DNA of 21,426 nt. Origin: Escherichia coli (GTDB taxonomy: Bacteria; Pseudomonadota; Gammaproteobacteria; Enterobacterales; Enterobacteriaceae). The DNA lies in the NCBI RefSeq assembly GCF_003334765.1, contig NZ_QOWT01000047.1. One strand, 5' to 3'. Under the pieces are notes generated by a model. That model searched no databases and was not told the origin of the DNA. It saw only the letters and a program-made list of their open reading frames with translations. Below are positions 1 through 17,077 of this stretch, in pieces (within the stretch, counting starts at the first letter, position 1; every line of letters starts with the position of its first letter). The translations under genes and the position numbers were made by a program.

Positions 1-77
1 ATGACTCATGATGAACCCTGTTCCATGGCTCCAGATGACAAACATGATCTCATATCAGGGACTTGTTCGCACCTTCC
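1..77 (-). mobile_element. IS5 left end (terminal inverted repeat plus first three codons of the transposase); the element extends leftwards out of the window
   Basis: Bases 1-77 are the exact reverse complement of 21350-21426. On the minus strand they read GGAAGGTGCGAACAAGTCCCTGATATGAGATCATGTTTGTC...ATGAGTCAT. I recognise this as the IS5 IRL followed by the ATG AGT CAT start of the IS5 transposase. Only 77 nt are visible. Confidence 0.85.
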
Positions 78-1009
78 TTAAAGGTATAATCAGGAATGAT
101 ATCGATACCAAATTTTTTAGCATCTTTAACCAATGCAATAAAATCCTGCAAATCTCCCATTGGATTATGGATGGTACAAAGATCTTCGGGTTGATAAGCA
201 TGAAACCAGTAACCCTTTTCTTCTTCGGGAGTTTCTGGTCCGTCGGCGCGGAAAGTTGTCACTGGAGGGATTTGTATATACCCATAATGGCAACGTGCAA
301 ATTCAGACATATTTTCTCTGATCTGCTGGTAGGTGGCATTAAAAGCATGAAGAATCGCTTCGCCAGGTTTTTTGGGGGTGATGATTTCACATTGTGATTT
401 CTGAACAGCAGTAAGAGATTTACGCTCAAGTGTTTGCCGTAGATGTTCTAGATTGATTAATATTTTAAATGTTTCTTGCTGTCCGGAAGGTGACGTCACG
501 TTAATATTATATACATCGGCTGCCAGCTCATAGTCAGGAATGTTAATAGCATATGCAACATATTTATCTTTTGGGGAAGGTTTGTCAGATATAATGTGGG
601 TGAAATGTTCAGCACGACCATACTGATAAACACCGCTGTTATCACCTCTTTCAATCATTGTATCTCGTTGATAAACCTATGTTTTTCTTTCTCCTATCCT
701 GTCTGGCGCTGTAATGCTACGCTGTGCTGCTTTATTCAACTCTCGGTAAGTTGTATCTGGAGAAAGGGAAATTTTATAATCGTTTTTTAACAGATCATTA
801 ATAACTTTTTCTGCGTGAAAAGTTGATATAATTTCTCTGTCTTTTAATCCTTGAGGGTAAACTCCACAAGAATTAATAATATTTGTTATACAGTTTAGAT
901 ATTCTAATGTATTTAATTTGGAATTTAGATCCCCGTCAGTAATGTTCCATGATAACAATGTGGGGTTGTCGATAGGTAAATTTCTGGGTCCTGGTTTTAT
1001 AGAAAACAT
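78..1009 (-). pseudogene. ygaQ: alpha-amylase-family pseudogene (ygaQ-like), interrupted by an in-frame amber codon and truncated at its 3-prime end by IS5
   Basis: ORFs 677..1009 and 50..658 share one minus-strand frame, separated by a TAG (cta at 677-679) and a few codons. The frame runs into the IS5 end at 77/78, so the last residues (..KEGANKSLI) are IS-derived. The position next to ileY and the motif ..KKFGIDIIPDYTF.. (GH13 region-I-like) fit my recollection of the K-12 ygaQ pseudogene. The family call is not verifiable here. Confidence 0.5.
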
Positions 1010-1568
1010 AATAAAGTTCCTCTAATGGTAGAGTAATATGATGTATACGGAAACATAAAAATGTTTAATTGTTGTGAAAGTAATTGCAAACAGATGTCCT
1101 ACTTTTATCCAATATTTATATGGAAAAGGATAATGCTTAAATCTGTTTTATTAATTATCGATGTGGTCTGGAGAGGCAACTGTCAAAAATCGCTCATACG
1201 AAACTAATGATTAGCAGAATAAGATCTATGAAAGAATATATTGCTATACGAAGTTTATTTTTATGGAGTGAAAAGTAACAGATATCATAATGATGCGAAA
1301 ACTCTTCAGCTAATGTAATAAAGTTATATTATTAGATACAAAATCATTACAAAGTATCATTGAATCGATGATAACTATAGATAGTGCTAATTATTAACAT
1401 TTGCTTGTTGACTGCGAGTATCGACTTTGCGAATGGAGGCGGTGTCGGGTTTTATGTCGCGTGTAATCACGACCCAAGGTGAATGGGAACGCATAAAAAT
1501 CTGTTATTTACATCATATGATCATCATGTTTATTGCGTGGTTTATAAGTATTGTTATTGCACACTCAA

Positions 1569-1644
1569 GGCCCTTTAGCTCAGTGGTTAGAGCAGGCGAC
1601 TCATAATCGCTTGGTCGCTGGTTCAAGTCCAGCAAGGGCCACCA
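1569..1644 (+). tRNA. ileY: tRNA-Ile2 (anticodon CAU, read as lysidine-AU), ileX/ileY type
   Basis: The gene is 76 nt: GGCCCTTTAGCTCAGTGGTTAGAGCAGGCGACTCATAATCGCTTGGTCGCTGGTTCAAGTCCAGCAAGGGCCACCA. It has acceptor stem GGCCCTT/AAGGGCC, anticodon loop CT-CAT-AA, T-arm GGTTCAAGTCC and an encoded CCA. The sequence matches the E. coli minor Ile tRNA as I remember it. Synteny with ypjA, pinH and ygaQ points to ileY. Confidence 0.9.
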
Positions 1645-1659
1645 AATCATTATTTACGT

Positions 1660-1880
1660 ATCAGGAAGAGTTAAGGGTACAAGGGGTACTCGATGGCGGT
1701 CTATATTTCATGACTAACGCCATTTCAAGGAAGAAGTGCGGTGGGTGGTTTCGAATGAGGGCTGGTGTTTTGGTACGTGGCACGCCACTGCAATGTATTT
1801 ATCCATCAGTACTCATTCAAAAGTACCTGGAAAAAATGCCTGCTATGCCAAGCGGGCAAATTGCTTACATGTGGAATTAA
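1660..1880 (+). pseudogene. possible remnant of the N-terminal arm-binding domain of a P4-family tyrosine integrase
   Basis: The frame of ORF 1551..1880, directly 3-prime of the tRNA, reads ..VLDGGLYFMTNAISRKKCGGWFRMRAGVLVRGTPLQCIYPSV... This keeps landmarks of the P4-type integrase N-termini (DGGGLYL..W.RYR..G.YP.VSL). No catalytic domain follows. The support is motif-level only. Confidence 0.35.
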
Positions 1881-2394
1881 GTAATTAACGATAAAGCCAG
1901 AGTATTATCATTTATTATACCCCTTCATTTAATCAGGTTAATTACTCAAATCACTGAACTATTCTCTGTTCGCTCACTGATGATAAGTGAGTACCACAAC
2001 CAATGTATGTAGAACAATGCCGTAGAGTAAGGATGAAATGTCTCTGCCACGCCTTAAACATCTACTACTGACCAGAACACCCGCCGCAGGCAGATGAGTT
2101 TTGTGAGCGTTACAGGAGCGTGGCTATGCTCATTAACCAACGCTATTGAGATATAAATTTCTAACACTTGAAAAACGATTTTCACTAATAAATTATAACG
2201 GTTTTTTTTATCATACAGCGAAATAACCTTTTGTTTATTAAATTTAACATTCCTGTGCTAATTTAATTAAAAGTTCCATGCGTAGCAAGTGAAGCAGTTA
2301 ATGTCAGTAATTGTCTCAAATGAGCGTTTTTTTATAGTGACAAACAGTAATAACATTAAAAATAGCCATGTAGACATTAATTGAGGAATAGACA

Positions 2395-3767
2395 ATGTTA
2401 GTTAGTAAAAGCAACGGATTTAACGCTAGCGCAGTTTTGGGTAGTGGAAGTTATAATGAAAATAAATCTTCTAAACACATGGAGCTACTAGCTCATAGTA
2501 TTTTAAAATTAATTTGTAAGGAAGCTGCATCAGAGACGTATCGCGGTGCTCTTGAAACTTTACAAAAAATGATGTCTGAATGTATATATCAAGAAGGCAA
2601 CGCCTTTGTCATTATGGGAGCTGGAGAACAATTAAAACGTATTAAATATGAAGTTGGTGAAAATAACTTAAAGGTATTCAACGTACACTTTAATAATAAT
2701 CACGAGTTAGTTAGTTCTGGTGAGCCTGACGTAATATGTTTAAGCAAGCAGGTCTGGGAAAATCTTCTCATTAAACTAAAGCTGGAAAACAATGAAAATG
2801 TGTTTTCTGAAACTAAAAAATTATCGAATAAAAATAATGCCGATCAGTTTTTTGAATGCGCTAAAAGAAATGAATAGAACCTTTTCGATAATATAAGAAA
2901 AAGTGATTTTCATGTTGGTTTACTTAAGCCAAGTAGTACGCGTAGTGTTATTTTAGAAACGCCGCCAAATGTCTGTATGGAATCACGTAATTCATATGAA
3001 AACAAAATAGATGAGATTTCATCTTTGTCAGAGTCAAAGGAACACCCCATAGATATTCAAGAAAAAAAGATGCGTTTGTGAATGAGTTCAAGGGGGTATT
3101 ATTTGATAAAAATACAAGGTCTTCAGAGCTTCTGTTTAATTTTTATGAGTGTTGCTATAAGTTTTTACCAAGAGCTCAGCCTCAAGATAAAATCGATAGC
3201 TATAATTCAGCACTGCAAGCTTTTTCCATTTTTTGTTCATCTACGTTGACACATAATAATATAGGCTTTGATTTCAAATTATTTCCTGAAGTCAAGCTGT
3301 CTGGAGAACATCTTGAAACGGTATTCAAATACAAAAATGGCGATGATGTCCGGGAGATAGCCAAAATTAACATTACTCTCCAAAAAGAAGAGGGTGGTTT
3401 ATATAATTTACGTGGATTGGATTTTAAGGGGTGCTTCTTTTCTGGACAGAACTTCAGTAACTATGATATTCAATATGTGAACTGGGGAACGTCATTGTTT
3501 GATGTTGATACTCCGTGTATTTTTAATGCGCCTGCTTACAACAAGAGTAATGAAAAATCATTAAAACCTGTGAGCGAAAACGGTTTAAGTGGAGTATTGA
3601 CTGATCGTAATAATAAAATAAAACTCATCACGGGCGTGGCACCATTCGATGATATTTTATTTATGGATGATGACTTTGATGATAGTTCCTCTGAGGATGA
3701 TCCCGTTGAGAATAGTCCTGTTGTGACTAGTCCCGTTGTATCAAGTTCTAAAAGCAGTTTTCAATGA
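2395..3767 (+). pseudogene. one ancestral 458-codon ORF (pentapeptide-repeat-containing hypothetical protein, in the position of ypjC) broken by an in-frame TAG and a frameshift in an A7 run
   Basis: ORF 2395..2877 ends at TAG 2875-2877. The same frame stays open for 67 more codons, to TGA 3079-3081. ORF 3078..3767 is in another frame that is open back to 3015. Adding one A to the A7 run at 3062-3068 fuses everything into a single frame 2395..3767. The segment LRGLDFKGCFFSGQNFSNYDIQYVNWGTSLFDVD has the 5-residue periodicity of pentapeptide repeats. The C-terminus is acidic and Ser-rich, and the DNA is AT-rich. Confidence 0.55.
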
Positions 3768-4017
3768 TTAATAAATGGCAATTTTTACAAAGAGATAATA
3801 ACGTAGATTGAAACAATATGTATTATTGATTGAGTAAACGGGATTATTCTTCACACTACATCCATTTTAGTGTCACTACCAAAGAAAAAGGGGCTACGTT
3901 TTCATGTAACCCCTTGATTTATTTGGTGGGCTGGCAGTGACTGAATTGGTGCTGTAATTGGTTGAAATATTTCATCTAATGTCTGGTTCAACTTTCCTTA
4001 GCTGCCTGAAAGTTTTT

Positions 4018-4108
4018 TGATCTTACCCAGCAATAACAGCGTTACGGTGCACCACGCCTGACTGAAGAACTGCGTGCTCAGGGTTACCACTTCAACGTAA
4101 AACCGTGG
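4018..4108 (+). mobile_element. internally deleted IS3 remnant (left inverted repeat joined to a short OrfB fragment)
   Basis: TGATCTTACCCAGCAATA (4018-4035) matches the IS3 left end as I remember it. Bases 4040-4108 translate to [21 protein letters not shown].., resembling IS3 OrfB (..[23 protein letters not shown]..). The sequence normally lying between these two parts is absent. Confidence 0.6.
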
Positions 4109-4109
4109 C

Positions 4110-4340
4110 AGGAGGTCCGGACTGAAAAAACTGGTCAGGACATCATCGGCAGGGAACGCACTGCTAGTCTGTAAACTGAACCGACTGGGGCGCAGTATGT
4201 GGCATCTTGTCGTGCTGTTGGAGGAGCTGTGCGAACGTGGTATTAACTTTCGTGCTCTGGCCCAATCTATATTTGCCCAACAATGGGGGGACGAATGCTG
4301 TAAAAGTAAAACAATCTGCGATCTCAAAGTTATTGTGTGA
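4110..4340 (+). pseudogene. pinH: serine DNA invertase fragment (Pin/Hin/Gin family) lacking the N-terminal catalytic region
   Basis: The frame reads [54 protein letters not shown]... It is colinear with Pin (..RPGLKRAL..GDTLVVWKLDRLGRSMKHL..L.ERGINFRSLTDSI..). The N-terminus is replaced by the IS3 remnant. Similarity is lost or frameshifted after about 4275 (an MGGR fragment appears in another frame). This is the same position as pinH in K-12. Confidence 0.65.
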
Positions 4341-4678
4341 TTTTTATGTGAGCAGAAGATATTCATCAGAAACGATTATGTAAATCATTTTATTTTGCCA
4401 ACGGCCTCATTGTCGAAAGAAAAGAATACGCCCGTATTTCCTGAATGGATTGACTTTTTTATCCAACCACACTTCAGCGCACTGCGTTTAAAAAATGCCT
4501 CATTCTTATGCGGAATATCATCATTTCATCATGATGTCTTTGATGAGCGGTGAACACAATACACTTGCGCTGTCTCTTCAGGATGAATCCCCTGGTCTGG
4601 TGCCTGTGGGCTGATGTTGCAGCAAAGCTAAGGTCGCTTAAACGCTACTCAGTATTCACTTTTCAGAGGATGAAATTT

Positions 4679-7600
4679 ATGAACAGGACCAGTCCCTATT
4701 ATTGTCGCCGCTCAGTACTTTCCTTATTGATATCTGCCTTGATATATGCCCCGCCCGGGATGGCTGCCTTCACTACTAATGTTATTGGTGTGGTAAACGA
4801 TGAGACTGTAGATGGCAACCAAAAAGTGAATGAACGAGGTACAACAAATAACACTCATATTATCAACCATGGCCAGCAGAATGTTCATGGCGGGGTATCT
4901 AATGGAAGTCTTATTGAATCTGGTGGATATCAAGATATAGGAAGTCATAACAATTTTGTGGGGCAGGCTAATAATACAACCATTAACGGTGGCAGACAGT
5001 CAATTCATGACGGGGGTATTTCCACAGGTACGACAATCGAGAGTGGCAATCAGGACGTTTATAAAGGGGGTATCAGCAATGGAACGACAATTAAGGGCGG
5101 TGCTTCACGCGTAGAGGGAGGGAGTGCGAATGGAATACTCATTGATGGTGGTAGCCAGATAGTAAAAGTTCAAGGGCATGCTGATGGTACAACGATAAAT
5201 AAGTCTGGCTCTCAGGACGTAGTACAAGGAAGTCTGGCAACGAACACAACCATAAATGGTGGTCGACAGTATGTTGAACAGAGCACAGTAGAAACAACAA
5301 CCATTAAAAATGGCGGTGAGCAAAGAGTATATGAGAGCCGTGCGCTGGACACGACGATTGAAGGCGGAACTCAGTCTCTGAATAGTAAGTCAACGGCAAA
5401 AAATACGCATATCTATTCTGGTGGCACGCAAATTGTTGATAACACCAGCACCTCGGATGTTATTGAAGTTTATTCTGGTGGCGTGCTTGATGTTAGTGGT
5501 GGTACGGCAACAAATGTTACCCAGCACGATGGTGCAATTTTAAAAACTAACACTAACGGTACGACGGTGAGCGGTACGAATAGTGAAGGTGCATTCTCCA
5601 TCCACAATCACGTGGCAGACAATGTGTTGCTGGAAAACGGTGGTCATTTAGACATAAACGCATATGGTTCGGCAAACAAGACGATTATTAAAGATAAAGG
5701 AACAATGTCAGTTTTAACCAATGCTAAAGCTGATGCGACCCGAATAGATAATGGCGGGGTTATGGATGTTGCAGGAAACGCGACAAATACCATAATTAAT
5801 GGTGGCACACAGAATATTAATAATTATGGCATAGCCACAGGCACCAATATCAACAGCGGAACGCAAAATATCAAAAGCGGCGGGAAAGCTGACACAACAA
5901 TTATATCCTCCGGGAGCCGGCAGGTTGTTGAGAAAGATGGTACGGCAATTGGCAGCAATATTAGCGCCGGAGGCTCGCTGATTGTCTATACCGGCGGTAT
6001 TGCACATGGGGTTAACCAGGAGACGGGCAGTGCTTTAGTTGCCAACACGGGTGCAGGGACTGATATCGAAGGATACAACAAGCTCTCTCACTTCACTATT
6101 ACCGGAGGGGAGGCTAATTATGTTGTGCTGGAAAATACCGGCGAACTGACGGTAGTGGCTAAAACCTCGGCGAAAAATACTACCATTGATACTGGCGGTA
6201 AGCTGATTGTCCAGAAGGAGGCTAAAACAGATAGCACCAGACTTAATAATGGCGGCGTTCTGGAGGTTCAGGACGGTGGTGAGGCTAAGCATGTTGAGCA
6301 ACAATCCGGCGGCGCATTAATTGCTTCCACGACCTCCGGAACACTTATCGAAGGAACCAACAGTTATGGTGATGCTTTCTACATCAGGAATTCAGAAGCT
6401 AAAAATGTAGTGCTGGAAAACGCTGGCTCATTAACAGTCGTCACTGGTTCCCGCGCAGTTGACACGATTATTAATGCCAACGGCAAAATGGATGTTTATG
6501 GAAAAGATGTTGGCACTGTACTCAATAGTGCTGGCACCCAAACAATATATGCCAGTGCCACTTCTGATAAAGCAAATATCAAAGGTGGCAAGCAAACGGT
6601 ATATGGTTTAGCCACTGAAGCAAATATCGAAAGTGGTGAACAAATTGTTGATGGTGGGTCAACAGAGAAAACACACATCAATGGTGGCACGCAAACCGTT
6701 CAGAATTATGGTAAGGCAATCAATACCGATATCGTCTCTGGCCTACAACAAATTATGGCAAACGGGACAGCGGAAGGTTCCATTATTAATGGGGGTTCAC
6801 AGGTAGTTAATGAGGGCGGTCTGGCTGAAAACTCGGTGCTTAATGACGGCGGCACACTCGATGTGCGGGAGAAAGGCAGCGCAACGGGGATACAGCAGAG
6901 TAGCCAGGGCGCTTTGGTTGCAACCACCAGGGCGACGCGGGTCACAGGAACACGCGCGGATGGCGTCGCGTTCAGCATCGAGCAGGGTGCGGCGAACAAT
7001 ATCCTGCTGGCAAATGGCGGCGTGTTAACCGTGGAGTCAGACACCTCTTCTGACAAAACACAGGTCAATATGGGCGGACGGGAGATCGTCAAAACAAAAG
7101 CCACTGCGACAGGCACGACGCTCACCGGCGGTGAACAAATTGTCGAGGGTGTGGCGAATGAGACAACAATTAACGACGGCGGAATACAAACAGTTTCAGC
7201 TAACGGAGAGGCAATAAAAACAAAGATCAATGAAGGCGGTACGCTGACAGTCAACGATAATGGCAAAGCGACAGATATCGTCCAGAACAGCGGTGCCGCT
7301 CTCCAGACGAGCACGGCTAACGGTATTGAAATCAGCGGTACTCACCAGTACGGTACTTTTTCCATTTCCGGCAATTTAGCGACCAATATGTTGCTGGAAA
7401 ATGGCGGTAATTTATTGGTATTAGCAGGTACCGAAGCTCGCGACTCCACGGTTGGCAAGGGTGGGGCAATGCAAAACCTGGGTCAGGACTCCGCCACAAA
7501 GGTTAACTCTGGCGGGCAATATACCCTTGGGCGGTCAAAAGATGAGTTTCAGGCTCTGGCCCGGGCAGAAGATCTCCAGGTCGCTGGCGGTACGGCAATC

Positions 7601-9259
7601 GTCTACGCAGGTACGCTGGCGGATGCATCGGTCAGTGGCGCGACAGGAAGCCTGTCGTTAATGACGCCACGGGATAATGTTACGCCAGTTAAACTCGAAG
7701 GGGCGGTCCGGATTACCGATAGCGCGACATTGACTCTGGGAAATGGCGTCGATACCACGCTTGCCGACCTGACGGCTGCCAGCCGGGGCAGTGTCTGGCT
7801 TAACAGCAATAATTCCTGTGCAGGTACCAGCAACTGCGAATATAGAGTAAACAGTTTGCTACTCAACGACGGTGATGTTTATTTGTCAGCACAAACAGCA
7901 GCGCCTGCCACAACTAACGGTATCTACAATACGCTGACAACCAATGAACTTTCCGGTAGCGGTAATTTCTACCTGCATACCAACGTTGCAGGCTCCCGGG
8001 GCGATCAACTGGTCGTCAACAACAACGCCACTGGTAATTTTAAAATCTTTGTTCAGGATACCGGCGTCAGCCCACAGTCTGACGACGCGATGACGCTGGT
8101 GAAAACAGGGGGAGGGGATGCTTCGTTTACGCTGGGCAATACCGGCGGTTTCGTTGATCTTGGGACCTATGAGTATGTCCTGAAAAGTGACGGCAACAGC
8201 AACTGGAACCTGACCAATGATGTCAAACCCAACCCGGACCCCATCCCAAATCCAAAGCCAGACCCAAAACCCGATCCAAAGCCAGACCCAAATCCAAAAC
8301 CAGACCCTACTCCCGATCCAACGCCGACACCCGTTCCGGAGAAACGCATTACGCCTTCTACGGCAGCCGTACTCAATATGGCAGCAACATTACCGTTGGT
8401 ATTTGATGCTGAGCTAAACAGTATTCGCGAGCGGTTGAACATAATGAAAGCGAGTCCACACAACAATAATGTCTGGGGGGCGACGTATAACACCCGTAAT
8501 AATGTCACCACCGATGCGGGTGCCGGGTTTGAGCAGACGCTGACCGGAATGACAGTGGGGATCGACAGCCGTAATGATATTCCTGAAGGAATTACCACGC
8601 TAGGCGCTTTTATGGGCTATTCCCATTCACATATCGGTTTTGATCGCGGAGGACATGGCAGTGTGGGCAGTTATTCTCTGGGCGGCTATGCCAGTTGGGA
8701 ACATGAAAGTGGTTTCTATCTGGACGGTGTCGTGAAGCTGAACCGTTTTAAAAGTAACGTAGCAGGTAAAATGAGCAGCGGTGGAGCCGCCAATGGCAGT
8801 TACCACAGCAACGGGCTGGGCGGTCACATTGAAACCGGGATGCGATTTACCGATGGTAACTGGAACCTGACGCCGTATGCATCGTTAACGGGGTTCACCG
8901 CTGATAACCCCGAATATCATTTATCCAATGGCATGAAATCGAAATCAGTCGATACCCGCAGTATATATCGTGAACTGGGCGCAACGCTGAGTTACAACAT
9001 GCGTCTGGGGAACGGTATGGAAGTTGAGCCGTGGCTGAAGGCGGCTGTGCGCAAAGAATTTGTCGATGATAACCGGGTGAAAGTGAATAGTGACGGTAAT
9101 TTCGTCAATTATTTGTCGGGCAGACGTGGAATATACCAGGCAGGTATTAAAGCCTCATTCAGCAGTACGTTAAGCGGGCATCTTGGGGTGGGGTATAGCC
9201 ATAGTGCCGGTGTGGAATCCCCGTGGAACGCGGTAGCTGGTGTGAACTGGTCGTTCTGA
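4679..9259 (+). CDS. ypjA: AIDA-I-type adhesin-like autotransporter, 1526 aa
   Basis: The start is placed at ATG 4679, with AGAGGA 9 nt upstream. This gives a MNRTSPYYCRRSVLSLLISALIYAPPGMAAF signal peptide. More than 1000 aa of degenerate GG-x-Q/T-x-V/I beta-helix repeats follow, then a Pro-rich PNPKPDPKPDP linker and a C-terminal beta-barrel ending ..AGVNWSF. Length, N-terminus and synteny match K-12 YpjA as I recall it. The upstream 43 codons of ORF 4550.. lack an RBS and a signal peptide. Confidence 0.9.
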   Translation: MNRTSPYYCRRSVLSLLISALIYAPPGMAAFTTNVIGVVNDETVDGNQKVNERGTTNNTHIINHGQQNVHGGVSNGSLIESGGYQDIGSHNNFVGQANNTTINGGRQSIHDGGISTGTTIESGNQDVYKGGISNGTTIKGGASRVEGGSANGILIDGGSQIVKVQGHADGTTINKSGSQDVVQGSLATNTTINGGRQYVEQSTVETTTIKNGGEQRVYESRALDTTIEGGTQSLNSKSTAKNTHIYSGGTQIVDNTSTSDVIEVYSGGVLDVSGGTATNVTQHDGAILKTNTNGTTVSGTNSEGAFSIHNHVADNVLLENGGHLDINAYGSANKTIIKDKGTMSVLTNAKADATRIDNGGVMDVAGNATNTIINGGTQNINNYGIATGTNINSGTQNIKSGGKADTTIISSGSRQVVEKDGTAIGSNISAGGSLIVYTGGIAHGVNQETGSALVANTGAGTDIEGYNKLSHFTITGGEANYVVLENTGELTVVAKTSAKNTTIDTGGKLIVQKEAKTDSTRLNNGGVLEVQDGGEAKHVEQQSGGALIASTTSGTLIEGTNSYGDAFYIRNSEAKNVVLENAGSLTVVTGSRAVDTIINANGKMDVYGKDVGTVLNSAGTQTIYASATSDKANIKGGKQTVYGLATEANIESGEQIVDGGSTEKTHINGGTQTVQNYGKAINTDIVSGLQQIMANGTAEGSIINGGSQVVNEGGLAENSVLNDGGTLDVREKGSATGIQQSSQGALVATTRATRVTGTRADGVAFSIEQGAANNILLANGGVLTVESDTSSDKTQVNMGGREIVKTKATATGTTLTGGEQIVEGVANETTINDGGIQTVSANGEAIKTKINEGGTLTVNDNGKATDIVQNSGAALQTSTANGIEISGTHQYGTFSISGNLATNMLLENGGNLLVLAGTEARDSTVGKGGAMQNLGQDSATKVNSGGQYTLGRSKDEFQALARAEDLQVAGGTAIVYAGTLADASVSGATGSLSLMTPRDNVTPVKLEGAVRITDSATLTLGNGVDTTLADLTAASRGSVWLNSNNSCAGTSNCEYRVNSLLLNDGDVYLSAQTAAPATTNGIYNTLTTNELSGSGNFYLHTNVAGSRGDQLVVNNNATGNFKIFVQDTGVSPQSDDAMTLVKTGGGDASFTLGNTGGFVDLGTYEYVLKSDGNSNWNLTNDVKPNPDPIPNPKPDPKPDPKPDPNPKPDPTPDPTPTPVPEKRITPSTAAVLNMAATLPLVFDAELNSIRERLNIMKASPHNNNVWGATYNTRNNVTTDAGAGFEQTLTGMTVGIDSRNDIPEGITTLGAFMGYSHSHIGFDRGGHGSVGSYSLGGYASWEHESGFYLDGVVKLNRFKSNVAGKMSSGGAANGSYHSNGLGGHIETGMRFTDGNWNLTPYASLTGFTADNPEYHLSNGMKSKSVDTRSIYRELGATLSYNMRLGNGMEVEPWLKAAVRKEFVDDNRVKVNSDGNFVNYLSGRRGIYQAGIKASFSSTLSGHLGVGYSHSAGVESPWNAVAGVNWSF
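8227..8336 (+). repeat. imperfect proline-rich (P-N/D/K/T-P) low-complexity repeat encoding the passenger-to-barrel linker of the autotransporter
   Basis: The translation is PNPDPIPNPKPDPKPDPKPDPNPKPDPTPDPTPTPVP. The DNA shows reiterated ccaaagccagaccc/ccaaaaccagaccc units. Confidence 0.8.
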
Positions 9260-9270
9260 CCATCAACGAA

Positions 9271-12057: not shown

Positions 12058-12363
12058 TTATTTAAAAGAGCTGAAAAATACAGGATTTAAATGGTGTTGG
12101 TATTTAAACTCAGTAGGTATAGTAACACTCGCATCAATCAGTTCTGTGATAGCCTGATAAAATTGAGTGGGTGTAATATGTATCCCTTCTTGCTGTGCTA
12201 TGGGCGTAACACGATGAAAAATTAGGTAAACAATGCTCTTATCTGGCTTATACGACGCGATTAATGTAAGCAACCAGAATACATTGTGAATAGTAGTGTT
12301 AAGATTATGACTTTCAACTGATGATTGATTATTTTGAAAGTAAGTGGAGAGTCTTTTTTGCAT
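12058..12363 (-). CDS. hypothetical protein, 101 aa, downstream of the RepL-like gene
   Basis: The ORF has an ATG start but no obvious SD. A GCGTGG/CCACGC hairpin lies between it and the upstream gene. It is called on length and operon position only. Confidence 0.4.
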   Translation of the reverse strand: MQKRLSTYFQNNQSSVESHNLNTTIHNVFWLLTLIASYKPDKSIVYLIFHRVTPIAQQEGIHITPTQFYQAITELIDASVTIPTEFKYQHHLNPVFFSSFK

Positions 12364-12427
12364 AAAGGTATCGTTTTTTTGTTAATGTTATCACTCGCGT
12401 GGAGAAAATTACCACGCTGTAATGTTT

Positions 12428-12991
12428 TTAAAATGGAATGCCGTCTGCAGGATTTCGTCTTCTGGAGTTTTTAACTGATTTTGTTTTACTCCAGGCACGA
12501 TAAAAATTAAACGAATTGGCAAAATCTTCTGTCTCCAGTCTGGATTTTCTGAATTTATCCATCAGATCTTCATTGAAACGACGAGGAATTCCCTTAACGC
12601 ACAAGTTTGAATTCAGATATACCTGATTATCTATGGTGTCACGAATAAGTATTTTTTTTCCAAATAACTCTTTGAATGCACGTGAAACATTTGATTTATT
12701 CAGCCCAAGCTCTTTGGCAGTACGTGACTGTGAAAAATCAGGAATAATATTACCGTAATCAATGGCTGAGAAGAGATAAATCACAATTCTAAATGCTGTA
12801 GGCGTCAAATCCATTCTGGCGAGTGTCGCCATATTACCTTTAAATACCATTGAGAAATCGTCCTTGAAGGACGTCTTTTTATAGCTGGTTGCTTTAATTT
12901 TTATTTCTTCTAGATCTTCGGGCATAACCTCTAATGCTTCTGCAATAATGGATTTTTGTTCTTTAGTTAATACAACACTTGTGATTGACAT
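12428..12991 (-). CDS. RepL-like winged-helix replication initiator candidate, 187 aa
   Basis: The ATG has GGAG 7 nt upstream. The core ..LTPTAFRIVIYLFSAIDYGNIIPDFSQSRTAKELGLNKSNVSRAFKELFGKKILIRDT..VYLNSNLCVKG follows the RepL (PF05732-type) pattern as I recall it. That pattern is: name-list helix, 'N-x-I/V' segment, then an HTH 'eiAeeLGisrstVsrai..L.ekglI', then 'y.iNP.i..kG'. An iteron array and an AT-rich tract lie immediately upstream. The C-terminus is ...NPADGIPF. Confidence 0.65.
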   Translation of the reverse strand: MSITSVVLTKEQKSIIAEALEVMPEDLEEIKIKATSYKKTSFKDDFSMVFKGNMATLARMDLTPTAFRIVIYLFSAIDYGNIIPDFSQSRTAKELGLNKSNVSRAFKELFGKKILIRDTIDNQVYLNSNLCVKGIPRRFNEDLMDKFRKSRLETEDFANSFNFYRAWSKTKSVKNSRRRNPADGIPF

Positions 12992-13020
12992 AATGGCTCC
13001 TTTTTTATTGTTGTGATTAC

Positions 13021-13049
13021 AGATATGGCATATTTAATTTATTTGTCAA
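13021..13049 (-). promoter_or_regulatory. candidate sigma70 promoter for the RepL-like gene
   Basis: On the minus strand the sequence is TTGACA (13049-13044), a 17-nt spacer, then ATATCT (13026-13021). This lies about 30 nt upstream of the ATG at 12991. The -35 is a perfect match and the -10 is weak. Confidence 0.35.
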
Positions 13050-13444
13050 TGGTTTTGATGATATTATTTTAATTATATCTTATTTGAATTTTTTATCCGT
13101 TCTTTGGTGGTGGTAATAGGTTGTAAAATTTGAAACGAGGGGTGCTAAATTTAACCATCACCTGTTATGTGATTGATAATTTTTGGTGCTGAAATTAACA
13201 ACGGCATATTTTGTATAATCATATGATTTTATTAGATAATTTTTGATTTTGATCTGCAAGATAAAAGAGTGATAAAGAAATAAGAAACCACAGTTTTGCA
13301 TTTGATCGATACTCAAGGCCTTGGTGTACCTGATGAAAACATTTTTATTATTGCTTTTCTTAAATAATATCATTTGTAAATTGAAGCCTGCGCAACTGTG
13401 TGTTACGCCCCATTGGGCTTCAGAACATCACTATAGTGTTTTCA

Positions 13445-13580
13445 GTCAGTATAAATACGCTTCGCGCACGAGTTCACAGTATTTAGGTTTACTGTCATTA
13501 AAAATACGCTTCGTGCAGAAGTTCAGAAAAATGGGGTTAGCTGTCAGCACAAATACGCTTCGCGCAAAAAAAAATCAGGA
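13445..13580. repeat. three direct iterons with a 49-bp period (candidate replication origin)
   Basis: The 16-nt core AAATACGCTTCG[C/T]GCA occurs at 13453-13468, 13502-13517 and 13551-13566, so the spacing is exactly 49 bp. Flanking positions are also shared (GTCA upstream, rAGTTCA downstream). The array sits between a very AT-rich tract (13000-13400) and a GC-rich patch, about 450 bp upstream of the RepL-like gene. Confidence 0.7.
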
Positions 13581-14030
13581 GGCTAAGTTGATCGAGAAAG
13601 CGAACACAGATACATGATTTACCCGTTTGCTGACTACGGCTCACGCCGGGACCCTTCGGAAAAACCCTTTCTGCTTCAGCGAGTGAGTGCTGCGGGCACT
13701 CAGAGGCGCTGCCAGGGAGACAAAATTAAGTTTTTCAACTGTTTGGTAAAAATAATTAACATTTATAGGTAGTCGGGGCGTAAGCCAGTGCGTAGCACGC
13801 TCTCAAAAAATATTCCTGTGGGTTTCTTATCTGCAATAGGGAAATAACTCAGATAATTGATATATGAAAAAACAATACAATCGGGAAGACACAACTTTAG
13901 CACAGTAAAAGCTATTTGTATTTATGAGGAATAAAATATATATGAATAATAAAATATTTTTATTTTGCTATTGATTTTAATTTTTAAGATGATAGTACTT
14001 AATTATAAAAACAAAATAATGGAGGAAATT

Positions 14031-15841: not shown

Positions 15842-17077
15842 TTATGGTGCAGGATGGTTGTTGTTTTTAAATGATTGTTCTTTATTGGTATTTGTTGTCA
15901 TGGGATGACAGGGTGTCAGAATATGTAGGTGGAGGATTTGGTGGAAAGGATGTGCAGTGGCATGTAACAGAGACATGCCTCTGCGCCTGAGAAGTGCCAC
16001 AATATGGACGAGCAATACAAGCCATGAATACAGACGACGCTGGCGGGGTATCTGACGAGCTGTATTGTGCAGATTGCTCCTGAGCTGGATGATACCCACT
16101 GTCTCCTGTTGTCTTTCCAGACGAATTTTTTCTTCAAGCTGATGGATTTTCTCCAGAATCGTTTCCCGGTTTGCAGCCTGCTCTTCAGACTCGCATGATG
16201 GCACTGGCACTGGCACTGGCACTGGCACTGGCACTGGCACTGGCGCGGTTGTAGGTTCTATTGGCCTCTGGGCTTCTTTCAGTAAACTCAGATGCTCAGG
16301 CGTAAAATCAATCAGTGCTTGCAGGGAAGACCAGCCATATTTTTTACCCAACTGAGATGCTTTAAAGGCAATACCCTGGTATTGAAATGAAAATCCACTC
16401 ATTTTACCCGTAGTGGCGATATTGGGTTTGCAGGTCACTCCTTCCTGTTCCAGTAAGCGAACAAAGGTTAGTAAATCGGGATGGTGTGTTAATGCATTGT
16501 CGAGCAGGGCCTGCAACAGTGACTTAGGGCAGGGAGCTGCTGTGCGTTCTGCCATCATCAGTTCATTACGGGAAGGCTTCCTTTTATCCTGGCGGCTACT
16601 GCCGGTTACACCCGTAGTTTCGGTGAGGCCGTGTACTCTCTCCAGCTCACTGATAATCCGTGTGCCGATAAGATTTTCATTTTTCCCCAGGTACAGTTTT
16701 CCACCGACCATGTTAATACGACTTGCAATGATATGAATATGCTGCCCATCCGGATCATCGTGCATGATATAGCAGCGAAGATGGGTGTCAGTGAAGCCCA
16801 TTCGGGCCATATAATCGTCAGCGAATGCTGCCCACTGTCTGTTTGACAGTTTCTCACCCTTTGGCAGGCGAAGTGAATTATGCCAGACAGGTTTGGCGAC
16901 ATCGGGACGCAGCAGTCGGGTGCCTTCAAATTCACTTATAAGCTCAGCAGCAGTGCTACCCGTCATGTTGCCACCGATGACATAAGGCGTGATTTTGTGG
17001 TGAGAACCTGACTTCAGGCTATAAATAACCACACCTGTGAATTGTTTACCCCTTTTTATTTTCTGCATGCCTTTCAT
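15842..17077 (-). CDS. MOBP-type relaxase (MobA/VirD2/TraI-RP4 family, relaxase/mobilisation nuclease domain), 411 aa
   Basis: There is an N-terminal candidate catalytic Tyr (..GVVIYSLK..). The motif HDDPDGQHIHI has exactly the HxDxDxxHxH spacing of RP4 TraI (HTDTDNLHIHI) and VirD2. The start overlaps the MobC stop (ATGA). The C-terminal half contains a (PV)7 linker and a hydrophobic segment. Confidence 0.9.
   Translation of the reverse strand: MKGMQKIKRGKQFTGVVIYSLKSGSHHKITPYVIGGNMTGSTAAELISEFEGTRLLRPDVAKPVWHNSLRLPKGEKLSNRQWAAFADDYMARMGFTDTHLRCYIMHDDPDGQHIHIIASRINMVGGKLYLGKNENLIGTRIISELERVHGLTETTGVTGSSRQDKRKPSRNELMMAERTAAPCPKSLLQALLDNALTHHPDLLTFVRLLEQEGVTCKPNIATTGKMSGFSFQYQGIAFKASQLGKKYGWSSLQALIDFTPEHLSLLKEAQRPIEPTTAPVPVPVPVPVPVPVPSCESEEQAANRETILEKIHQLEEKIRLERQQETVGIIQLRSNLHNTARQIPRQRRLYSWLVLLVHIVALLRRRGMSLLHATAHPFHQILHLHILTPCHPMTTNTNKEQSFKNNNHPAP
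16201..16242. repeat. perfect hexanucleotide tandem repeat (GCACTG)x7 inside the relaxase gene, encoding (PV)7
   Basis: Seven perfect units were read directly at 16201-16242. On the coding strand they are CCA GTG codons, giving PVPVPVPVPVPVPV. Confidence 0.95.

Follow-up and report, generated by a model that had tools for sequence, protein, structure and literature searches.

A 49-bp repeat array in the probable replication-control region of an integrated mobilizable element of Escherichia coli

We analysed a 21,426-nt stretch of the Escherichia coli contig NZ_QOWT01000047.1 (GCF_003334765.1), referred to here as the window and used for all coordinates. It contains a 1-kb intergenic region (12992-14030) in which a repeated motif recurs three times at an exact period of 49 bp. 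Positions 13000-13600 very probably belong to the region that controls replication of an integrated mobilizable element, or island, with an initiator of the pHW126 type, the 187-aa winged-helix protein Rep encoded beside this region. The homology of Rep to plasmid initiators and the purifying selection on its gene make the replication-origin region of a Rep-dependent, DnaA-box-free replicon a good and well supported reading. The units of the array may be accessory Rep-binding sites, a view that we favour only tentatively and weigh below against its alternatives. Related loci and plasmids are denoted by L numbers.

The 49-bp repeat array and its conservation

Direct reading of the sequence places the motif AAATACGCTTCG[C/T]GCA at 13453, 13502 and 13551. 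The cores are AAATACGCTTCGCGCA at 13453-13468 and again at 13551-13566, and AAATACGCTTCGTGCA at 13502-13517, with spacings of exactly 49 and 49 bp. Tandem Repeats Finder reports one array with a period of 49, 2.6 copies, 76% matches, no indels and a score of 139, and a repeat search gives a three-copy family of 36 nt with 75-81% identity to the reference copy. When up to 3 mismatches are allowed, the 16-mer core has only these three sites in the window, against a mean of 0.21 matches in shuffled sequences, and none of 100 shuffles gave three. The repeats and their exact period, as given in a preliminary description of this DNA, are thus borne out. The cores lie 461-575 nt upstream of the rep ATG and the array is about 30 nt from a conserved hairpin (hairpin H; Table 1). 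The period corresponds to 4.7 helical turns, of which about 39 bp is the constrained part. No single-strand folding of the units was seen (DNA fold z about 0), and they are therefore most readily interpreted as double-stranded sites bound by a dimeric or oligomeric protein. A scan of the whole window against Rfam found tRNA only and no RNA family over the array region.

Copy number and spacing of the array were tabulated across 25 related loci. Three copies at 49 bp are present in the window, in L008, L009, L012, L013, L015 and L016 and in the Salmonella loci L033-L035, two copies at the same spacing in eleven loci, and two copies at 39-40 bp in L022, L023 and L025; a single copy is found in L027 and L028, and none in a single clade formed by L029, L030, L031 and L036. 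The 49-bp period is held in 18 of the 21 tabulated multi-copy loci, from more than 10 genera. Information content in 41 distinct units from 22 loci is 1.86 bits per position in the core compared with 1.05 and 0.65 in the flanks. Between the window and the Salmonella locus L033, whose rep genes have a synonymous divergence of about 1.5, the cores are identical at 45 of 48 positions and the non-core parts at 50 of 99, with the period still exactly 49. The near-invariance of the core across more than 10 genera and the retention of the period despite diverged spacers indicate that the array is functional, non-coding DNA under strong selection. The preliminary description had suggested that the core be looked for beside homologous rep genes; it is found there in more than 10 genera but is absent from the clade of L029, L030, L031 and L036.

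It is highly improbable that the array is a functionless slippage duplication or part of a small gene (13321-13617 or 13158-13373). Copy number does vary by whole units and mechanically called open reading frames (ORFs) do overlap the region, but slippage alone would hardly leave a core near-invariant at saturating synonymous divergence across genera, or a period kept while the spacers diverge. As for coding, conservation of the two ORFs was checked at 16 related loci: the ORF at 13321-13617 (plus strand) is open in the window alone, and that at 13158-13373 (minus strand) is missing in 10 of the 16. Neither has a Pfam match or homologues, no RefSeq coding sequence is annotated over the array region, and each change in copy number adds or removes 49 bp, a length not divisible by 3 that breaks the frames. 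The array is therefore not coding, and the suspicion in the preliminary description that both ORFs are artefacts is confirmed.

A few further observations concern the array. Right after the third repeat, at 13578-13616, an AGGAGG precedes a 9-codon ORF with a TTG start; the Shine-Dalgarno sequence and start codon are both gone in L006 and the Shine-Dalgarno sequence is gone in L009, so it is probably no gene. In L007, L011, L013, L015, L017 and L018 an extra degenerate copy of the core together with its right flank, AAATACCTCTCGCGCAgaagtta, lies roughly 1290 bp from the array towards rep, and in L007 it falls within a 191-aa gene beside the integrase of an element at the mutS site; this copy may be due to chance or may be an additional binding site. 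A metagenome scan with the 14-mer AATACGCTTCGCGC returned 120 single matches in unrelated contigs, evidently by chance.

The initiator homologue and the probable origin region

In tblastn searches against plasmids, Rep aligned over 91% of its length, at 45-47% identity, with the ORF that is the only or the main one on 2.67-2.83-kb plasmids from Klebsiella, Enterobacter and E. coli; identity was 40% to RepM of pIGMS31 (1e-21) and 30% to Rep of pHW126 (2e-7). The recognition helix SNVSRAFKELF is identical in the island Rep and in the Reps of plasmids L003, L004 and L037. The matches indicate that Rep is a genuine homologue of experimentally proven plasmid replication initiators. Its gene is intact in all the loci examined, and with dN/dS values of 0.10-0.13 in the four pairs with estimable dS it is under purifying selection. 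The Rep proteins of pHW126-like plasmids are needed in trans for replication, have a MarR-like winged helix without HUH motifs, nick DNA and are distant kin of the RepL protein of pSN2 (bioRxiv 10.1101/2022.12.05.519187; PMC6854812; PMC2831885).

The preliminary description had called the gene RepL-like and diverging from the AT-rich DNA. Its direction and its homology to plasmid initiators hold, as the ORF reads away from the AT-rich tract, but the RepL label is correct only in an indirect sense: Rep gives no match to Pfam RepL (PF05732) even at E<=1, and Pfam returns only sub-threshold winged-helix matches (HTH_36, Phage_rep_O, Rep3_N and Cro). The RepL profile matches 4 of 9 aligned Rep relatives, with a best value of 1.7e-5, and three Yersinia homologues carry a precomputed PF05732, which suggests that the relationship of Rep to RepL is an indirect one. 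A structure model of low confidence (mean pLDDT 51) places a helix-helix-helix-wing arrangement (H-H-H-beta-beta) at residues 64-126, and a fold search with this model gave weak MarR-type winged-helix matches, none at E<=0.001.

The origins of pIGRK and pIGMS31 consist, in order, of a palindromic single-strand initiation site (ssi), a conserved region (CR), four 20-bp iteron-like repeats with a 22-bp period, operator repeats and rep; the CR and iterons make up the minimal origin, and the iterons exert incompatibility (bioRxiv 10.1101/2022.12.05.519187; PMC6854812). In the closest plasmids the origin repeats are dyad-symmetric direct repeats with a sequence of TTAT...ATAA type. Four ATTATGAAAATCATAAT repeats with a 22-bp period lie 130-220 bp upstream of rep in L003 and L004; the same repeat occurs at this period in L037, whose record is broken across the array, and pIGMS31 has three AGTTATAGATTCCTATAACC repeats. 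Directly before the iterons the plasmids carry the CR motif CCnTTGATATTACTCA, which we derived by comparing six plasmids.

Candidate counterparts of several of these parts are present in the island (Table 1). The AT-rich tract of about 400 bp in the preliminary description is confirmed, and within it lies the rep promoter region, with the -35 hexamer TTGACA on the minus strand at 13044-13049. The absence of a canonical DnaA box was also correctly reported: the perfect box TTATCCACA does not occur in the window, and TTATNCACA with at most one mismatch is not enriched there (25 found, 30 expected), only the matches at 13210 and 13941 falling in the intergenic region. Hairpin H was compared across 27 loci and is present in all of them, including the clades without the array, with one compensatory change (GAAGTC/GACTTC) in L029, L030 and L036 and a DNA fold of -9.5 kcal/mol (z = -2.2). 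At its loop and 3' arm the sequence CA(A/G)GTTG resembles, by eye, the mapped nick region of pIGMS31, GGCAAGT^TCTG (bioRxiv 10.1101/2022.12.05.519187), and hairpin H is accordingly marked here as a candidate nick or double-strand-origin hairpin.

Between hairpin H and rep, the polypyrimidine block is invariant in the island alignment, and its 18-mer GGTTTCTTATTTCTTTAT is exact in 19 loci including Yersinia. A similar block, GGTTTCTTCTTTCTTATT, lies about as far from rep in plasmids L003 and L004. Identification of this block with the CR of the family was considered and rejected, as the six-plasmid comparison shows the CR to be a different motif; CCnTTGATATTACTCA was not found in the island, and the block, which lies upstream of the CR, is the only such element in common with L003 and L004. 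Closer to rep, three distinct sites (four overlapping matches) have at most 3 mismatches to AAATTTAGCACC, compared with a mean of 0.41 matches in shuffled sequences, where none of 2000 shuffles reached four. The site at -161 is recognisable in most clades, not in Yersinia L031. These degenerate repeats are candidates for the positional counterparts of the family's 22-bp iterons, better ones than the 49-bp array.

Taken as a whole, the island resembles the pHW126-like modules (pHW126, pIGRK, pIGMS31 and unnamed enterobacterial plasmids of 2.7-3.1 kb) in the homology of Rep, including its central winged helix and a recognition helix of the same sequence, an origin upstream of rep with internally dyad-symmetric direct repeats, a GC segment rich in hairpins beyond these, a polypyrimidine block some 290-300 nt away from the rep ATG, AT-richness and the lack of a DnaA box. 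The repeats are of another kind. The plasmids have 3-4 repeats of about 20 bp with TTAT..ATAA, whereas the island has 1-3 copies with a GC-rich core, located distal to the polypyrimidine block; it is moreover chromosomal and larger than 20 kb, against plasmids of 2-3 kb, and has no clear CR. The comparison with a classic iteron-controlled theta origin, the layout proposed in the preliminary description, is likewise not supported as it stands. Tandem repeats upstream of rep and an AT-rich region are both there, but units of about 17-22 bp at a spacing of about 22 bp would be expected, not 49 bp (39-40 bp in L022, L023 and L025), DnaA boxes are missing, and the array differs in sequence and position and is absent from one clade. 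The broader proposal of a candidate replication origin gains from the homologous initiator and the AT-rich tract. The element is not a plasmid, and a probable origin of transfer (oriT) lies in the same region, which makes relaxosome proteins just as credible as binders of the array.

Table 1. Features of the 1-kb intergenic region and the associated replication and mobilization genes (window coordinates)
Feature	Coordinates	Strand	Description
rep, 187-aa winged-helix protein	12428..12991	-	homologous to pHW126-like plasmid initiators
AT-rich tract	13001..13400		27.8% GC; holds the degenerate repeats and the polypyrimidine block
Degenerate direct repeats	13119-13130, 13141-13152, 13185-13196	-	GGTTGTAAAATT, GGTGCTAAATTT and GGTGCTGAAATT; spacings 22 and 44 bp
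Polypyrimidine block	13254..13289	-	rep strand GGTTTCTTATTTCTTTATCACTCTTTTATCTTGCAG; starts about 298 nt upstream of the rep ATG
Hairpin H	13383..13421		GAAGCC-..-GCGCAAC-loop-GTTGCGC-..-GGCTTC
Three-unit array	13438..13566		unit is an imperfect dyad of about 39 bp (CTGTC...AAATACGC-T-T-C-GCGCA...GACAG) plus a linker of about 10 bp
GC-rich block	13638..13711		compound hairpin CAGCG-AGT-GAGTGC-TGCGG-GCACTC-AGAGG-CGCTG at 13677-13711
Candidate oriT nick region	13777..13826	+	hairpin GTGC-GTA-GCAC at 13788-13798, then ATTCCTG at 13812-13818
MobA/VirD2-type relaxase (MOBP-type)	15842..17077	-	Pfam PF03432, 1.6e-22
135-aa putative relaxosome accessory protein	17074..17481	-	ribbon-helix-helix-like motif VSVRLNEEEL..ILDSKRG..GEWLRMA

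On the far side of the array, the GC-rich block is conserved in every clade; the fold of 13630-13720 has -18.4 kcal/mol (z = -1.6), and a frame-breaking 1-nt indel in L006 indicates that it is non-coding. It could be a single-strand initiation site or a part of oriT. No sequence similarity was established between the plasmid ssi and either hairpin H or the compound hairpin. A long-range inverted repeat, GGCTCACGCC (13638-13647) and GGCGTAAGCC (13777-13786), brackets the GC-rich block and the candidate nick hairpin, and in L006 the complementarity becomes perfect (GGCGTGAGCC). Upstream of the gene for a 141-aa protein (start 14031), TGATAGTACTTAATTATAAAAAC at 13990-14012 is near-invariant in the closer clades and largely kept in the distant ones, and is probably the promoter or operator of that gene.

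Candidate binding proteins of the array

It seems plausible that, once the element has excised, the winged-helix Rep would initiate replication of the circular form in the manner of a plasmid, from the region upstream of rep as in its plasmid relatives, with the 1-kb intergenic region as the cis-acting hub of the element. Hairpin H, the polypyrimidine block and the degenerate 22-bp-spaced repeats would be the core parts of the origin, and the three 49-bp units would be dyad, double-stranded protein-binding sites directly distal to hairpin H, acting as a 'bind' locus or as a copy-control or incompatibility array beside the nick hairpin, as in rolling-circle plasmids. In rolling-circle origins of the pMV158 type, a nick-site hairpin is flanked by separate direct repeats that are bound by the initiator. 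The hairpin and separate repeats of the island may be seen as analogous, although the pMV158 repeats are 11 bp and RepB is an HUH nuclease, whereas those of the island are 49 bp and Rep has no HUH motifs. The repeats and their conservation, the homology of Rep and the island setting are established by the data, whereas it is inferred that replication occurs, that hairpin H is the nick site and that Rep binds the array.

Among the proteins of the island, AlpA, the DUF6387 protein and three small ORFs are excluded as binders because the array-bearing loci L007, L011, L013, L015 and L017 lack them, which leaves Rep, the relaxase, the 135-aa protein and the 141-aa and 91-aa proteins. The family offers a precedent of Rep-bound dyad repeats in an origin upstream of rep, and the array immediately adjoins the conserved hairpin H. 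RepM of pIGMS31 has been reported to bind several unrelated sequences. We are therefore inclined, with somewhat less than even confidence, to regard the array as accessory Rep-binding sites of the island origin and not as the canonical iterons of the family.

Several observations weigh against Rep as the binder. The core AAATACGCTTCGCGCA is unlike the iterons ATTATGAAAATCATAAT of L004 and L037 and GTTATAGATTCCTATAAC of pIGMS31, though the recognition helix is identical in the Reps of L003, L004 and L037, and this helix is also invariant in the core-less island clade L029, L030, L031 and L036. Period (49 versus 22 bp), distance from rep (about 450-575 versus 130-220 bp) and order relative to the polypyrimidine block all depart from the family plan. 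Rep is still intact in elements that carry a single copy (L027, L028) or lack the array altogether, which means that the module can do without it. The array also borders the probable oriT, with a ribbon-helix-helix accessory protein encoded nearby; among the 5426 complete E. coli genomes these elements never appear as plasmids; and no experimental work on the element came to light.

The array might instead consist of relaxosome accessory sites of oriT that serve mobilization, the 135-aa protein or the relaxase binding the dyads near a nick at about 13812-13819, which we consider possible if doubtful. The conserved hairpin and ATTCCTG stand 250-380 bp from the array, and the stem of the hairpin varies as GGTGC/GCACC in L027 and GGC/GCC in L031. 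By eye, ATTCCTG resembles the IncP/IncI nick core ATCCTG. The sequence upstream of the relaxase operon is not conserved, which suggests that oriT lies elsewhere, and the 1-kb intergenic region probably holds it. A MOBP-type relaxase and the NikA-like accessory protein are kept in every array-bearing locus. Loci whose relaxase shares at least 67% identity with that of the window have the core, and those at 59% or less do not, while Rep identity is about 70% irrespective of the core (present in L033, absent from L029, L030 and L036). Proteins of the ribbon-helix-helix type typically bind repeat arrays; at the TraM and TraY sites of F and the NikA repeat of R64, small proteins of this type, encoded beside the relaxase, bind repeats or dyads within a few hundred bp of the nick. 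The covariation is, however, not independent evidence, since all loci lacking the core group together in a single clade, whether the tree is that of Rep or that of the relaxase. The assignment of the nick motif was made by eye, hairpin H and the rep side are nearer to the array than the candidate nick is, and the ribbon-helix-helix call is weak, with a Pfam NikA-like match at E = 0.042, a precomputed PF21983 in one homologue and a poor model (56 mean pLDDT) that is uninformative on the motif. The array shows no sequence similarity to the known accessory arrays, and 39-bp dyads in tandem at a 49-bp period are not known as an oriT layout. The 10-mer TACGCTTCGC, common with the region upstream of mobC in pBRST7.6, was considered as a signal and rejected as probably due to chance, since it is not kept in the related pWES-1 and pGXY040.

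Less is to be said for an operator or enhancer bound by another protein (the 141-aa or 91-aa protein or a host factor), for instance one of origin-activating or antisense transcripts of the pIGMS31 kind, and we regard this as quite unlikely. Operators typically show dyad symmetry such as that of the units, each of about 39 bp, both the 141-aa and the 91-aa gene are kept in every array-bearing locus, and pIGMS31 has Rep-regulated promoters inside its origin (bioRxiv 10.1101/2022.12.05.519187). Yet no sigma-70-like promoter is predicted inside or beside the array, and the genes on either side both start about 450 bp away from it; neither the 141-aa nor the 91-aa protein shows a DNA-binding domain, save a weak zinc-ribbon match for the latter, and their identity levels do not track the presence of the core. 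A bolder reading is that a widespread, hitherto undescribed family of enterobacterial integrative mobilizable elements has adopted an initiator of the pHW126 type, known only from 2-3-kb plasmids, and that the 39-bp dyads at a 49-bp period are a new kind of origin element, replace or supplement the 22-bp iterons, lie between the replication hairpin and oriT and could couple replication to transfer via Rep and the relaxosome; this proposal is speculative and on balance unlikely.

The integrated element and its genomic setting

Many E. coli strains carry the 1.7 kb around the array on the chromosome with 99.9% identity. The region was found in 146-152 of the 5426 complete E. coli genomes (about 3%), and all of its 149-156 places are chromosomal and none is on a plasmid; the array is never annotated. 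A collection of 72,556 plasmids, together with phages, gave no megablast match to 12300-14000, and the plasmid collection gave no match to 13380-13870 by distant blastn, which indicates that no plasmid carries the cis region of the array. In strain H3 the near-identical region lies between tRNA-Ile and ssrA, the CP4-57 position (ileY/ssrA in E. coli), and in the window a tRNA-Ile is located at 1569-1641. The H3 region contains a YpjA/EhaD autotransporter, a DUF6387 protein, an AlpA-type regulator and the 187-aa protein, beyond which follow a 1-kb gene-free stretch, the 141-aa protein, small lipoprotein-like genes, a MobA/VirD2-type relaxase and ankyrin proteins, with integrase genes further on. 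An integrase and a relaxase are thus annotated in the tRNA-Ile-ssrA segment, with no gene of a type IV secretion system. The core module of the 187-aa gene, the 1-kb spacer, the 141-aa gene and the relaxase also occurs at mutS and tRNA-Leu sites with other integrases, and in at least 12 other enterobacterial genera. This recurrence at other sites with other integrases, together with the relaxase, indicates that the element is an integrative mobilizable element and not a plasmid.

Two short linear PLSDB records labelled 'plasmids', OX345049.1 (L002) and OX345050.1, hold, among other genes, homologues of the island rep (67% identity) and relaxase (66%); they were considered as an autonomous form and rejected, as they appear to be chromosomal contig fragments. 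Likewise, 9-kb contigs from the homologue searches were rejected as plasmids, being broken chromosomal pieces.

Excision of an integrated mobilizable element followed by replication from a rep-plus-iteron module is known from the PIMEs (bioRxiv 10.64898/2026.01.12.698999) and SGI1 (PMC7433901, PMC7826253), which replicate only after excision triggered by a helper plasmid. Like these, the island is integrated and has an integrase, AlpA, a relaxase, a probable origin of its own with rep and repeats, and defence cargo. The Rep families are unrelated, however, those of PIMEs and SGI1 being of the RepA/RepC type; in the PIMEs, oriV combines four iterons with a DnaA box and has its AT-rich region downstream of repA; the oriT there is clearly IncP-like; and the gene set of the island matches no member of those families.

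We found no description in the literature of islands with the pHW126-type Rep family or of this array. Roughly 3% of complete E. coli genomes carry the module, as do many other Enterobacteriaceae, and its variable cargo includes adhesins and defence genes such as Kiwa and SIR2. If Rep and its upstream region drive replication after excision, this would explain the persistence and spread of the islands, and the poorly understood pHW126 initiator family, which combines rolling-circle with theta behaviour, would then reach beyond very small plasmids to chromosomal islands. No concepts would be overturned, since replicating mobilizable islands and Rep-bound repeats are already known.

The relaxase has matches to NCBIfam TraI_MobP and Bacteroid_MobB below the cut-off and is 43% identical to the relaxase region of the IncQ2-type plasmid pBRST7.6 (PLSDB type MOBP). 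In homologue searches with the relaxase and the accessory protein, the matches listed were all close relatives, with identities no lower than 82% and 80%, respectively, and none of them gave a context without Rep or without a relaxase. The relaxase ORF contains a perfect hexamer repeat, TGGCAC x 7.7 (100% matches), at 16199-16244; its homologues among the matches listed are 399-413 aa long, a variation that changes in hexamer copy number could explain.

Positions 1-9260 of the window hold DUF5507/DUF5508 (ypjC/ypjB-like) genes and the YpjA/EhaD autotransporter (1569 aa, 4550-9259), which has internal repeats at 8245-8325. The strain cargo beside the module varies (L001, L006, L009, L034, L035) and includes the defence-type genes for Kiwa KwaAB, a SIR2 protein, a RelA/SpoT-domain protein and a DEAD/DEAH-box helicase, while the ankyrin-repeat genes are a constant part of the module.

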